DNA of 51,736 bases from Elsinoe ampelina (lineage: Eukaryota), in contig ML992502.1 in the NCBI GenBank assembly GCA_010093995.1, positions 1,956,312 to 2,008,047 of the forward strand, given 5' to 3'. Shown here piece by piece: positions 2,327 to 51,736 of the stretch. The notes under the pieces were generated by a model that was given only the letters and a program-made list of their open reading frames with translations, made no database searches and was not told the origin of the DNA. The translations under genes and the position numbers were made by a program. Each line of letters starts with the position of its first letter. Position 1 is the first letter of the stretch.

Positions 2327-4704
2327 TCATGCGTAAGGATCAGGCCAGGACCACATCCCGTGGACGCCACCGTCTCCGTCCCATCCTCCGTACTCATCTC
2401 CTGGCTCGTTGTCTCGTGTGATTCGGACCGTGGTTGGAGGTGACTCTGCCGATGCTGCATGTTGGACAGCGATAGGGCGTTGCTTCTGTGGAATGACGGC
2501 TGAAGTCTGTTGAGGCATCGGCTGTTTGGGGTGGTGTCGACTCGGGCGTTGGCGACTACCAGCATTAGTGTCTGCTTGCTCCCCGGCATCCATCCAGGTA
2601 GGACAGGAGTCAATGTCTTGCTCGTTCTCGCTGCCGGAGTCGATTGGACGATGGAGTGACCATGGGGGACAAGAGTCTCCCAGTACTTGCTCAGATGGTC
2701 TTTTCCCCTGACGGTTTGTATCGATATTCTCATTGCCCATACTCTGCTTGTCGCTGTCGAGTGTGTTGGTCCGCTTATGCTGGACTGGCAGTGGTACTTC
2801 GTTACCAGCATTCTGTCTGGGACGGAGAACGCGTGACCAGGTCTTTGTCCGGGTTTTGGTCACTGGAATGATCTCGGAAGCCATGGAAGACTCTTGTAAG
2901 ATCTTCTGACGCTTGGGACGAGGGCGTATAGGGGCATACTCGGATCCCTGCCTCGGTGGACGCCGCTTAGGCGTCTTTAATTGGATACTATCTTCCTTGG
3001 CGAGTCGTCTCTCCGAGGCATCTGACTTGTCAAAGGACACTTGTGCTGGAGGAACACGTGGGCGGGATGATTGATCCTTGCGGGTGTTGTCGTCCTCCGA
3101 GCCGCTTTCATCTTCATTGTCTGCATCGTGGGTATCTGCTGTGTATCTGGCGTCTCTGACAATCTGACGCTCTATCGTTGACATCGCTCGACGACTCATG
3201 AAGGTCGAAGATGTCTTCTGTTTCAGAAGCGGTGCAACCGGATCATGGTCAGCAGATCCTGCGGGTGGACCACGATAGATGATTTCGGCCTGCGAATCTG
3301 GATCGTCGAGGGAATTTGCATGTGTCTGTCCGTCTCCCAGGACCCCAAGGTCGGCCATTTCTGCCACTGGATGCTGTGCTATCCCGATCAATGGGCTACC
3401 GCCGCAAGTACGTGTTTGTGAGAGCAAACTATCCTTCGCCGTACCCAGAGTCCTACGAGGGACGGACGAGGATGACTTTCGCTTAGCGGACAATTGATTG
3501 TGGTACTCCGCATCCAGCACAGCACCCTTGGAAGTCTCCTCCGATTCGAGCATGATGGCTTCTAGCAGGGAGACTCCGGGAGTCACAACGGTCTGTGGAA
3601 AGGATTTGCTTGTAGAAGCAGGAATGACTTCCGAGGTCCTTCGAGGAGCTGAAATATCCCATTTACCCGAAGAGACAAGCAACGTCCGCTTCGGAGCCGT
3701 GATCGCAGGTCTGAGATGTGGAATACTCTGTTCTTGAGAATCTAGTAGCGTCTTCCCTAGCATGTCTGGACCCTCCACTTCAGTGGGCTCGTTCGATGCA
3801 GGGTCTTCCGGCTGATCGAAGAGCGACAGGAGACCAGAGGATGCTCTTGAAGGACTTCTGATAGCGGATGTACTTGTCACAAGGTCGACTTCAGGTTGGT
3901 CAGGCAAGGTGACCTTATCGCAGCCGACACTGGCAGAGAGTGGTAGCGGACCGGTAATGAGCTGCAGGATCTGCGAGAAGACCAAGCGGCGCCTAGTCGG
4001 TGTCTTCCTTACAGATCTGTGACTGATAATCAACTTGATCGGCGAAGGCTTGGATCTTCTTTTGAGCTCGGCCTTTGTATACGCTGGGTGCTCGCCAATT
4101 GAGACAGCAGCAAGACGCTTTCCAATGCGTGTGATTTTGTCAGGTTCGTGGGAGAGCTTGTAGTTTCGCTGGCGATCGATCACGGAGACGAGTCGATTGT
4201 GTCTTTGACGACGACGCTGGCTTTTGGAAGGCTCTTCTGAGATCTGCTGTGGACTTTGATCCGGGTCCTGTAGCGAGATATGAGGTGAGCCAGGTAGATC
4301 GTCGTGAAGAGGCAGTAGTATCAGCTCGTTCGCTGGCAAATGCCCTTTCCTCCGAATGGCGACAGCGGCTCGTTTGGGCGGTCTCAGTGCTGACTTCTGG
4401 AGCTTGCGGCGGGTAGTCCTGGTAGCAATGTCTGATCCGGATTCCTCAGAGGTATCCTGGGCCGTAAGTCGCAGTGAACCACGTGGTGGCTGAAGTTGTT
4501 GTGTCTGATCGACAATCGGGCGTGGTACCATGTTAGAGATTTGCTTGACTAAGGTCCATTGCTCGTGCAGAATTGCTGACAGTACCGTGTATGACGCGAA
4601 ATGAATAGATCTGAGTCGTCAGCTCAAGATCGGGCGAGGAGCATGAGGAAAGATTGAGGACTCAAAGATGAGAAATGTTTGATGGTTGGAAGCGCACTCA
4701 CCAT
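2327..4704 (-). CDS. Hypothetical low-complexity, probably disordered protein (S/R/P-rich, basic NLS-like clusters)
   Basis: 734-aa ORF at 2327-4531 with no recognisable domain. A likely upstream start is ATG 4704-4702, followed directly by GTGAGT, with a CTGAC...CAG acceptor near 4612. The 5' exon structure is uncertain. Confidence 0.6.
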
Positions 4705-5662
4705 GGCTGACTCCTTGGACGTCCTTCCTAGGTAGAAACTCTTCTAGCCTTGCCTGTCAGCTGGTTGGCCACTGGAAAACTGGGCTTCGGCCCAGTAAAA
4801 GAGGAAATCATTACAATTCTTGAGCGCTGTATTTACATATATGTACAAGGCGGATATATTTTGCGTTCTGTGTAGACCTTCATCTTCACCATCATCTTCA
4901 TCTTCACTTGATATCTAGACAGATTCTATTCTCTGGGCCTCTCCACTGCTCTTCACATCCTCATTAGGCTCATCGGAAGTTACACCCCTGTGTTGTTGCC
5001 GAGCAATCTTTCTCTCAAGCATTCCCTCAACCTGTCCACTCTTCCAGGTGGAATGCTGGCATCAAAGATGGTATCAATCTCTTCGAGAGTCTTGCCTGCG
5101 GTTTCCGGGTATGTAAAAAAGACGTGAATTGTCATGACGAAGCAGAAGACACCGAAGATAATGTATGTGCGCCACTGGATGTTCGTGAAGGCTGAAGCGA
5201 CGAAGAAGGCCAGAGCAAAGTTGAAGCTGAGGCTAGTCAGTCATCTTTCACGATAAAGATATCTGATCACTTACGCCCAATTGACTGCGGCCGCAATACC
5301 AACGCCCTTGGCGCGCCATTTGAGTGGGAAGACCTCGGAGGCGTAAATCCAGCCGACAGGCGGTATCGTTTATAGGAGTACCAAGTTCCAAACTTTAAAA
5401 TTTTTAGCGTATTGCTTGGCGGGCTAAATCCAGCCAATTTGTTAATAAAAAACCCTAGCTACAATTCTTACCTACCTCTTACGTCATAAGATTCCCTCGG
5501 TTAGACTTTCTATTTTATTATATAATCATTTTCTTACGTAGCAAATTTAGCCGAGCATAGCCTATCGTCGCCTATCGTAGCTAAATGTAGCTATGTTCTT
5601 GCGCATGTTGAAGCTCTAGTTTTGATAGATTATATATTTAAATTTTTGTCGCGCTAAATCTA

Positions 5663-5766
5663 GGCGCCGTGGCTTAGTGGGTAGCAACTTTTTGCACGTC
5701 TACTAATTTCTATGCGCCTTAACCTCTACGTCCTAAAGGTTCTAGGTTCAACTCCCGACCGTGTCA
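5663..5766 (+). tRNA. Degenerate tRNA-like sequence (pseudo-tRNA or Pol III cassette) inside the transposon; isotype not assignable
   Basis: 5' GGCGCCG pairs with 3' CCGTGTC-A (6 of 7 including G-U). A box TGGCTTAGTGG at 5670-5680, D-stem GCT/AGC, B box GGTTCAACTCC at 5745-5755. There are about 30 extra intron-like nt in the anticodon arm and TTTTT at 5783-5787. The T-stem pairs poorly. Confidence 0.6.
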
Positions 5767-5800
5767 ATTATTATATATAGTCTTTTTCTACTTAATTTAC

Positions 5801-5910
5801 TCGAGGTAGTAAATCTAACCGAGGTCTTTTACTTAGTTAGAGCTATATATCTAGCCGAGGTAAGTTAATAGTCGAGGTAGCTCTATAACCGAGGTAACTT
5901 AATAACTAAG
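5801..5910 (+). repeat. Degenerate 17-18 bp tandem array with CGAGGT core
   Basis: CGAGGT at 5802, 5820, 5856, 5873 and 5890 (spacings 18, 36, 17, 17). Confidence 0.75.
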
Positions 5911-6966
5911 ATTACAATTATAAAGACATATATAAACCAAAATCAGGCAAATTACATATAATTTGGCTGACGCACGCCAACTTAAAGTTCGGCCAAGTCT
6001 AAAATAAGCTTTGCAAACTTGGTACCCCTATAAACGATACCCGACAGGCGCCCAGGCGAGACCATAGATACCAACGAAGATATACACGATCGCGATCACG
6101 CCACGAGCGGCATTCCCTGGCGGTATCTCCCACTTGAGGTCGGCGTTGCCATTGACTTCATCCACTGGGTAGCCATTGAGCTAACATCGAAGCCAAAGAG
6201 GGCACCTCCGATGGTGCCAAAGGCAGCGAGGACTGCTTGTGTTAGCTCTTAAGCGACGTAGTAGAGGCGCTACTGACCATAGATGTTGGTGAGACGGAAC
6301 ATGTTTACACAATGCCGTATGCAGTACTTCGTAAAATTGCAAGGTCATTGACCACCAAAGTACAAATCAGAGGGACAAGAGCGGAAGGAGATCTGGGAAT
6401 CTTGTTATACATTGCCAGACACTTACTTACCCGCACCATAATCCCTTCTATTACCCCATCTCCAGCGGCCAGGTCTAAATATCTGGCGCGATCCATGTGG
6501 TTGACATTTGAGGGAAGTGAAAATGTCTCCCCGTCAGATACTGTATGACATCTCGCGGCTGATGACGTTGCGACGTCACCTGGGGAAATCCTTGCATTGT
6601 CCTCTAGAGTCTCCCACCGGGCGTTGATTCCTGCGGGTCTTGTTCTACGTAGCTGCTATCCAATATGATACACTCGTCACGGAACACGAGCAACGACGAC
6701 CGTTGATTTCGTGATTGTGGGACATATCCTCATGCCAAATGTGGGACGGGGATATATCCTGAAGTATGTCCTGAACTCGGTATTCAATTGTGGAAAATGC
6801 GATGGACATTCATCCGGTGGGTGAATCGTTAAATGTACGGAATCGAGCAACGACTTGTCAAGGTAGGGGTATCATTTTCAAAGCATCGCTAGGCATGTCT
6901 ATTACCGTAGCCCGCTGGGGTGGCCAGGAAGACCATCAACGCTATGCAAGACCAAAACACCTTGCA

Positions 6967-50074: not shown

Positions 50075-50512
50075 CTAGCACGTAGATGAACTGCCTGGCA
50101 GACCCAAGCAATCATGCAGTGCTTGACGTGAAGATCTATGCCAGCTGCAACGGCTCAAGCGGGCACAGTGGGGTGTCGTCGTAGGGAAGACTGAAATCGA
50201 GTGGAATCTCGGTCCCGTTTGGATCACGAATGCCACCTACCATGTTGCGGACCTTTGTTGAGCGTAACCAGCTCAATCAGCTAATTTGTCAATAGAAGCT
50301 GACACAAGTAGTGATTGTGATGTTTCCGCTTGCTCAATATTGGTAGCAGTGACGACAATAAAAGCTGAAACGGCCGTCAGTATCTCTACAAATCTTGATG
50401 TCAACCGAGGCATAAGCTGGAGCGCCAAGAAGACCCTGAGTCAGTTCATCCCAAGGTTGAACTAAACACTATCTTACTATTTCACTAATCCATGATCAAA
50501 TTAGATGATTAT

Positions 50513-51736
50513 TGTCTTAATCTACTGCTATTAAGGAGTTCTTTTGATTTAGTTATCTTTTAGTACACTAGGTTAAGTATTTATATAGTTATAATCTACC
50601 TTATTTTAGTAGTATAGGCAGTAATTAATCCTTTTTCCTCCCCTATACAAGTTAATAGTTATAAGCCTAGTATAACTACCCCTATACAAGTATATTACTT
50701 AGTTGCTTTTCTACTCTATTTATTAGTTAATTCTCTACTATCTTACTTTTTAAGTATTAGAATCTATTAAGAACTGCCTTAACTATAACTACAGGATTTA
50801 GATGTTAATAAGGAGATAAATAACTATAGATACTAACACCTTAATAGCTAGAACATCTATTATTCTTGCTATATTAGCTAAATAGGCTAGCTAGCTATAT
50901 ATTATTAAGATAAGAGTATTAAATACTAAGATATAGAACCTTATTAATCCCTAGAAGGCTATTAAGCTAGAAGGGCTCCTTAAGCCTTAGAGACTAGAAG
51001 TAGTAAATATTAACTTCTTAGCACTCTTCTAGATATATAAGGAGGAATAAGTATAATATAAAAAATAGTATAAGGCCTTAGCTAATTTAGCTAGCCTTAT
51101 TTAGTTATTAATTATACTATAAGTTCTTACTATTATCTAACTAGAAAGGGATTCTTATCTATAGGCTATCCTTAGGGCATTAAAGAATAGATTTACTCTA
51201 TCTAATATAGCTATTTAGCTCAAGATTAAAGCACTCTAGAGAAAGTAGCTATCTAGCTCTTCCTTATAGAATATAGACTATTAGCTTTAGTAATAGAAAG
51301 AGGTTATAGACAAGGCTAGGAACTATAATCTACTAGAAGCTTAAGGCTTAAGGCTATAGAGAGACTTCTTACTCTCTATCTTAAAGACTAAACTAGTATT
51401 TACTAATAAGTACCTTATTAATCTAGATTTACTAACTCTACTAACTATGCTTAAACTAATTACTAAATTTAGACAGTTTTATAAACTCTATAAGCTATAT
51501 AGTACTACAAAGGCTAGTAAGGGGGTTATAGCCTTCTCTATAGCTACTAAGAATATTCTTTATAAGAAACCTAGTCCCTCTAGAGAGCCTAAATATATAT
51601 ACTAAGGCTAGCATAAGTAGATTAAGTACTATTACTTAAATAAGTATCTAAGGCTAGAAGGATAGACACTAAACTAGTAGACTATAAAGGAGATTAAATA
51701 AAGGCTAAATAATAAGACTCTTAAAGAGAGAATTAA
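50513..51736 (+). mobile_element. RIP-inactivated Ty1/copia-type LTR retrotransposon (putative 5' LTR plus gag), running off the window
   Basis: Abrupt AT-rich, TpA-saturated, CpA/TpG-depleted block. Reverting RIP changes in one frame from 50826 gives W..IIK.RA...IW.LI.P, LRALKNRFAPSD, NID.WLQQWE, LPEAQG.RP.RDFLLSI, a zinc knuckle C-x-C-x3-H-x4-C-YYL at 51594-51638 and RPEGW.P. This matches my recollection of fungal copia gag. LTR limits (TGT at 50513, ACA near 50793) are tentative. Confidence 0.75.

Follow-up and report, generated by a model that had tools for sequence, protein, structure and literature searches.

A recently mobile MITE of Elsinoe ampelina carrying a probable tRNA-derived relic and giving rise to read-out RNA

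The window analysed is a stretch of 51,736 nucleotides (51.7 kb) of contig ML992502.1 of Elsinoe ampelina (assembly GCA_010093995.1), and all positions count from its first letter. Close to its left end the minus strand carries the relic of an MFS sugar-transporter gene, which is interrupted by an insertion. The downstream part of the relic with the C-terminal exons is located at 4918–5352 and contains an intron at 5227–5274, as revealed by Pfam, tblastn and spliced contigs. The upstream part (6051–6302, intron at 6233–6277) was recognized by tblastn and by contigs; it encodes the first ~29 residues and then jumps to about residue 350 of the homologues. The 86-aa C-terminal exon matches the Pfam family Sugar_tr with an E value of 1.6e-9, and the two short exon pieces beside the insertion matched no Pfam family. 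The protein nearest to the transporter exon is from Elsinoe batatas (77% identity). A protein of Elsinoe batatas is also nearest (90%) to the product of a neighbouring gene for an isopentenyl-diphosphate isomerase, for which the next nearest match is from Myriangium.

The insertion extends from 5363 to 6041 on the plus strand and comprises 679 bp of non-coding DNA. A repeat scan identified terminal inverted repeats (TIRs) of 25/26 nt at 5362/3–5387 and 6016–6040/1, which are 96% complementary with a single mismatch (25 of 26 positions). A pattern scan and comparison with a second copy of the element fix the left TIR at 5363–5387 and the right TIR, which lies on the minus strand and is one base longer, at 6016–6041. 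When the 25-nt TIR pattern was searched with up to three mismatches, only these two sites were found in the whole window, and no match occurred in 100 shuffles. The repeat scan also revealed a perfect direct repeat of 10 nt, CCGACAGGCG, at 5353–5362 and 6041–6050. The contigs of the second copy show other flanks, namely ...ACAAAATG ahead of 5362 and ACAAAATGG... directly after 6041. A duplication of 9 bp together with an element from 5363 to 6041 is the sole choice of boundaries that gives a perfect target site duplication (TSD) at both copies. The TSD therefore reads CGACAGGCG at the copy in the window (5354–5362 and 6042–6050) and ACAAAATGG at the second copy. The perfect TSD and the 26-nt TIRs described in the initial annotation are thereby confirmed, with 9 bp as the true length of the TSD.

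The reconstructable empty site that had been claimed is real, and so is the insertion. Deletion of the element together with one duplication in silico yields a single open minus-strand frame in the transporter exon. In the interrupted gene, the frame stops after ...GLAWAPVG on the side of 6180 and resumes with WIYASEVFPLKW... on the side of 5352. Four full-length sugar transporters were compared by tblastn, those of Elsinoe batatas and E. fawcettii giving the best alignments. Across the four, residues up to ~345–398 align to 6258–6037 and residues from ~339–392 to 5369–5004. The ranges of the homologues overlap at the insertion, since the residues encoded by the duplication are matched twice, once on each side of the element. 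A reading of the insertion as an introner or MITE-derived intron was rejected: within the duplicated 9–10 nt there is no minus-strand GT..AG pair 688 nt apart, and no contig of the runs compared joins across the element.

Four public sequencing runs were compared over positions 4700–6700 in the form of Logan assembled contigs. In run X1, which is the probable source of the assembly and hence not independent of it, the element forms a separate contig of 680 nt (5362–6041) at a depth of 337.7 and without any variant. Four further contigs adjoin it, two different ones at each end, with depths of 159.3, 155, 150.5 and 154.2. The element contig has about twice the depth of its flanks, and two contigs abut each end; thus there are two copies, identical throughout their length. 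The initial annotation spoke of a transposon family, a term that is not supported by exactly two identical copies in run X1, as counted from its assembly contigs. No third copy or further TIR pair was found within the 51.7-kb window, and a TIR scan of metagenome contigs gave no match. The element contains no open reading frame, and stops occur throughout all six frames. With its TIRs, its TSD and an identical counterpart inserted at a different site, the stretch 5363–6041 is a real, recently mobile non-autonomous TIR DNA transposon (MITE), as had been proposed.

Near its right end the element carries a plus-strand subterminal array of five CGAGGT-centred repeats at 5800–5905, starting at 5802, 5820, 5856, 5873 and 5890, and the repeat scan found an inverted partner of this array at 5495–5512. 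The composition of the element is RIP-like, with a GC content of 0.364, a TpA/ApT ratio of 1.58 and a (CpA+TpG)/(ApC+GpT) ratio of 0.60, compared to 0.56–0.58 and 1.24–1.37, respectively, in the flanks. The two copies are identical, and RIP-like decay consequently predates the last transposition. A 9-bp TSD is a hallmark of Mutator-like elements, whose superfamily range is 9–11 bp, and 9 bp were found in two of two copies. Judged by TSD length only, the element would most likely belong to the Mutator superfamily. TIRs of 25/26 nt are short for typical MULEs, which counts against this assignment.

A cassette resembling a tRNA gene is situated in the centre of the element, on the plus strand. 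All features listed in the initial annotation were found at, or within one base of, the positions given there, including every part of this cassette. A TATA-like word (TATATA at 5631) occupies 5631–5640. The tRNA-like stretch itself extends from 5663 to 5766 and begins and ends with acceptor-stem halves (5663–5669 and 5759–5765) that pair at six of seven positions, two of them as G-T. The A box at 5670–5680 perfectly matches the textbook consensus TRGCNNAGTGG, which occurs nowhere else in the window on either strand. The B box at 5745–5755 is a perfect GGTTCRANNCC and starts 75 nt after the start of the A box. A TTTTT run proposed as the terminator follows at 5783–5787, 17 nt past the tRNA-like stretch, and another TTTTT run at 5689–5693 between the two boxes is a potential early stop for Pol III. 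Both copies of the element carry the cassette, as they are contained in the single 680-nt contig without variant. The claim that the cassette was mobilized together with the element is thus borne out, and the cassette is not a private one-off insertion.

Rfam and ARAGORN were applied to this stretch. In a search restricted to 161 nt, the tRNA model RF00005 aligned end to end (model positions 1–71) to 5663–5766, with six of seven pairs in the acceptor stem, three of four in the D stem and three of five in the T stem, and with the pairs of the D and T arms in register. The anticodon arm is absent, and 50 unaligned nucleotides take the place of the 17-nt arm. The alignment scored 14.2 bits (E value 1.8 on 161 nt) compared to a gathering threshold of 29. 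From this E value, about 0.14 tRNA matches of 14.2 bits are expected per window of such size, and therefore a derivation from tRNA cannot be based on the covariance model by itself. An Rfam search over the entire 51.7-kb window revealed nothing at the gathering level and no tRNA gene. In a search of 1 kb around the element, the cassette was not listed and only a chance match to RsaJ appeared. ARAGORN found no tRNA gene either at default settings or with introns allowed. A low-threshold call of an intron-containing 'tRNA-Ala' was discarded, since the same setting gave 88 calls in the window and 88–129 calls in each of 10 shuffles.

The cassette is not a tRNA gene: the anticodon arm is missing, the score of 14.2 bits falls far below 29, ARAGORN gave a null result, and a TTTTT run lies 27 nt into the body. 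The view of the initial annotation that a tRNA gene or Pol III transcription unit is present is therefore not supported.

Is the resemblance to a tRNA a coincidence within the AT-rich, repeat-built interior of a MITE? The low score, the missing entry in the 1-kb Rfam search and the unspecific ARAGORN match would all agree with this. So would the RNA fold of 5663–5766, for which the minimum-energy structure is not a cloverleaf and which is no better than that of shuffled sequences (z −1.27; 24 of 200 shuffles fold as well). Furthermore, a motif that is repeated within the element, CTAAATC[CT]AG, shares positions with the 5′ acceptor half. Against this stands the combination of features. An A box and a B box 30–110 nt apart, as in tRNA genes, occurred 0.001 times per shuffled window (2000 block-shuffled windows), and none of the 2000 windows contained both boxes together with acceptor pairing at six or more of seven positions, in a chance test that was defined post hoc, after the feature had been seen. 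The end-to-end alignment to RF00005 with the D- and T-arm pairs in register also argues against chance, and we regard a mere coincidence as improbable. The cassette is quite probably, to judge from these sequence features, a tRNA-derived relic that has retained its promoter boxes and lost its function.

Transcripts were found in the other three runs (X3, X4 and X6), which represent three studies and bear the label 'RNA?' or '?'. These runs contain contigs of the transporter relic that are spliced on the minus strand, lacking 5227–5274 and 6233–6277, which are bordered by CT..AC on the plus strand. As these introns are removed, the runs hold RNA. They differ from the DNA at position 5778 (T>C) and possibly derive from another strain. 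A contig of 765 nt in X3 (record 7) joins 5669–5857 to 5924–6499 and skips 5858–5923. If the cut is shifted by two positions, the skipped stretch becomes 5860–5925, a spliceosomal-type plus-strand intron of 66 nt with the borders GTAAGT...AG. This intron is represented by one contig of one run (X3), which a 66-bp deletion allele would formally also explain. Both X4 and X6 contain a contig of 5687–5859, which stops exactly at the donor site at 5860. In X4, a further contig (record 11) comprises 5985–6041 followed by 97 more letters, of which the 30 displayed correspond to the right flank of the second copy. Accordingly, the spliced RNA of X3 exits the first copy through its right TIR, and a separate contig of X4 crosses the right TIR of the second copy. 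At the first copy, the X3 contig retains the minus-strand intron 6233–6277 and hence is antisense to the 5′ part of the transporter. None of the RNA-type runs covers 5370–5637 or crosses the left junction.

The RNA contigs within the element begin at 5669 (X3) and 5687 (X4 and X6), that is, 6–24 nt from the tRNA-like 5′ end. From Logan contigs, neither the true 5′ end of an RNA nor its strand or polymerase can be read, and the strand was deduced solely from the letters of the splice sites. Agreement of the contig starts across studies is no more than a weak hint. With these limits, the data indicate a plus-strand RNA whose start is close to the tRNA relic's 5′ end, ~30–38 nt past the TATA-like word, and we infer that this word at 5631 acts as promoter. 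The X3 contig and those of X4 and X6 span the TTTTT run at 5783–5787, and the run at 5689 is passed likewise. Thus, the proposed TTTTT terminator does not act as a terminator on the observed RNAs, which are the sole ones seen and of which one is spliced and leaves the element. Read-through of the T5 runs, splicing and a length of >800 nt indicate a transcript of Pol II type rather than of Pol III.

These transcripts also bear on the idea that the cassette still functions as a Pol III unit or binds TFIIIC and that the transposon spreads it as a source of ncRNA or as a chromatin barrier. Both boxes are perfect amid decayed stems, as in SINE heads that keep their promoter; the TATA-like word upstream and the T5 run downstream fit such a unit, and the contig starts close to the tRNA-like 5′ end point weakly in the same direction. 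Nevertheless, the TTTTT run at 5689–5693 would stop Pol III early, the observed RNAs pass both T5 runs, and the long RNA of X3 is spliced. Moreover, a comparison of two identical copies gives no indication that the boxes are under selection. Altogether, a Pol III unit or binding site that is still at work appears unlikely.

A parent tRNA gene was not found in the 51.7-kb window by ARAGORN or Rfam. When the initial 22 nt of the tRNA-like stretch were used as a pattern with three unspecified positions, the scan returned 32 loci. ARAGORN detected a tRNA at none of them, and no parent was identified among these loci. By eye, most of the 32 are members of a single SINE-like family of repeats from other organisms, which has nothing in common with the element beyond the head. 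It is very unlikely that a retroposed tRNA or a tRNA-derived SINE entered an older MITE that later made its last transposition: the cassette has a 9-nt direct repeat, ATTATATAT, on either side (5629 and 5770), and SINE-like repeats elsewhere have, by eye, tRNA-type heads whose first 22 nt are almost identical, but the flanking repeat is AT-rich, was matched in 230 of 5000 mononucleotide shuffles and measures only 8 nt in one strain owing to the change at 5778, no A-rich or simple-repeat tail follows the cassette, and the tRNA-like part begins 25 nt past the left repeat and ends 3 nt short of the right one, unlike a Pol III transcript from start to terminator. The flanking repeat was consequently rejected as the TSD of a nested SINE, and the initial annotation was right in seeing neither a second TSD nor a tail around the cassette. 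The tRNA-derived relic was probably acquired by capture together with its flanks, in the manner of transduplication.

The observed structure, insertion, two copies and read-out transcripts can be combined into a reading that we consider rather likely: a MITE of Mutator type took up a tRNA gene and the DNA beside it, underwent decay and has remained mobile, and its interior has come to act as a Pol II-type promoter that travels with it and happens to supply an exon and an intron. According to this, the 679-bp MITE, most likely of the Mutator superfamily, would depend for its movement on a transposase supplied in trans from another locus. Uptake of the tRNA gene fragment and its flanks would have proceeded as in MULEs and other DNA transposons that acquire pieces of their host's DNA. 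In this fragment both promoter boxes would have stayed perfect, along with most base pairs of the acceptor, D and T stems; the anticodon arm would have been lost, and no tRNA could be made from it any longer. RIP-like base decay would have followed before the last transposition of the two identical copies. In the window, the MITE would then have entered an exon of the sugar-transporter gene, which is now a relic, and made the 9-bp duplication. From a plus-strand promoter of Pol II type, with the TATA-like word ~30 nt upstream and a start coinciding with the 5′ end of the tRNA relic, a transcript would pass the T5 run and then lose a 66-nt intron derived from the element's own subterminal repeat. 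It would leave by the right TIR into the adjacent DNA and would here run antisense to the 5′ part of the transporter.

A further prediction is that the intact A and B boxes and the TATA word still recruit TFIIIC and TBP and that the relic has been kept for this reason; we give it a slim chance. If true, the MITE would be a portable module for start-site positioning or a barrier, providing an outward transcript and its own small exon and intron wherever it is inserted. It would also be the DNA-transposon counterpart of a SINE head, with Pol III promoter boxes dispersed by cut-and-paste. Binding of the Pol III machinery to the boxes, which is hypothetical, would mean an unusual spread of Pol III promoter elements by a DNA transposon and not by a retroelement.

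The element is a concrete case of a small transposon that equips the DNA next to it with promoter, exon and intron, and it was still able to move despite its RIP-mutated-looking sequence. The Elsinoe fawcettii genome report describes a GC content of 52.3%, a transposable element coverage of 0.37% and sparse AT-rich regions with 33.8% GC (PMC7259788). The window resembles this picture. The two copies are identical and their duplications perfect, which speaks for DNA transposition in the very recent past; the closest relatives of this fungus with sequenced genomes are reported to be transposon-poor (PMC7259788).

Several known systems share features with the element. Full-text searches of PMC and bioRxiv literature revealed no tRNA-like unit inside a TIR element in the titles and abstract openings listed. 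Transposon-borne outward promoters are alike in that transcripts start inside and exit through the end of the element into the flanks, here at both copies; they differ in that the start coincides here with a tRNA relic and that an intron was gained from the element's own repeats. The heads of tRNA-derived SINEs likewise have perfect A and B boxes, a decayed cloverleaf and no working anticodon arm. SINEs, however, depend on reverse transcription and have the Pol III start site at their start and a tail at their end, whereas the relic described here is placed in the middle of a unit with TIRs and TSD and has no tail. Among Dothideomycetes, the transduplicating hAT element of Pyrenophora tritici-repentis is a transcribed DNA transposon with a host gene enclosed by its TIRs; it has a size of 2.3–5.6 kb, a histone H3-like ORF and 10–26 copies (PMC3538342). 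Both are thus Dothideomycete DNA transposons with host-derived cargo and transcripts, but the element of Elsinoe ampelina has only 679 bp, is non-coding, makes a 9-bp TSD and contains a tRNA relic. Mutator-like MITEs and Pack-MULEs agree with it in being short and non-coding, in their TIRs and subterminal repeats, in the 9-bp TSD (two of two copies) and in a host-derived fragment that moves between the ends. Unlike them, the element has TIRs of 25/26 nt, no known transposase partner and two copies in run X1. The cargo of Pack-MULEs consists of protein-coding exons, whereas the cargo found here probably comes from a Pol III gene, that of a tRNA. We regard the element as a MITE or Pack-MULE-like element with probably tRNA-derived cargo, and its kind, captured host DNA in a DNA transposon, is already known.

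The minus-strand MFS sugar-transporter gene (4918-6302) into whose exon the 679-bp TIR element (5363-6041) is inserted is a relic in its own right, irrespective of the insertion. Comparison with Elsinoe homologues revealed that approximately residues 30-350 of the homologues are absent, and the N-terminal motif (6302-6171) directly adjoins the TM10 region near 6171-6180, which is read in a different frame. A further frame change between 5046 and 5004 is required for following the homologues at the C-terminus. Despite this decay, spliced RNA contigs exist for both halves of the gene.

Each TIR of the element contains an outward-facing TATAAA (5369-5374 and 6029-6034), positioned 6-12 nt from the tip. 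Minus-strand contigs of the 3′ part of the transporter end at 5306 in one RNA-type run (X3) and at 5324 in another (X4), that is 39-57 nt outside the left end of the element. An outward promoter within the TIR is possible; the contig ends disagree between the runs and are no proof of it.

The coding flank directly left of the insertion (5334-5356) resembles an internal stretch of the element (5415-5437; repeat family D2) at 18 of 23 nucleotides, including the exact 10-mer AAATCCAGCC. This type of motif is absent from the 30 letters seen of the left flank of the second element copy, and the likeness is thus probably due to chance.

At position 5778, downstream of the tRNA-like cassette (5663-5766), all three RNA-type runs, which originate from three studies, show a C, while the DNA run that probably underlies the assembly shows a T in both copies of the element. 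The dinucleotide at this site is accordingly TA in DNA vs. CA in the RNA runs. The strains could differ here, or the T could stem from a C-to-T change of the RIP type; the mismatch is not callable as editing, since the strains used for the RNA and DNA runs may differ.

The end of the window (50460-51736) is formed by a strongly AT-rich and TA-rich block with a GC content of 0.283, a TpA/ApT ratio of 1.85 and a (CpA+TpG)/(ApC+GpT) ratio of 0.29. These values give it the look of repeat DNA that RIP has heavily mutated and that continues past the window edge.

A scan of metagenome contigs with the cassette's first 22 nt, leaving three positions free, yielded 32 loci (L001-L032), most of which have in common a single repeat that is at least about 130 nt long. 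ARAGORN predicted a tRNA in none of the 32 loci. The repeat opens with a tRNA-type head that differs little from those 22 nt of the cassette and then diverges, and it has the appearance of a tRNA-derived SINE family from a different organism.
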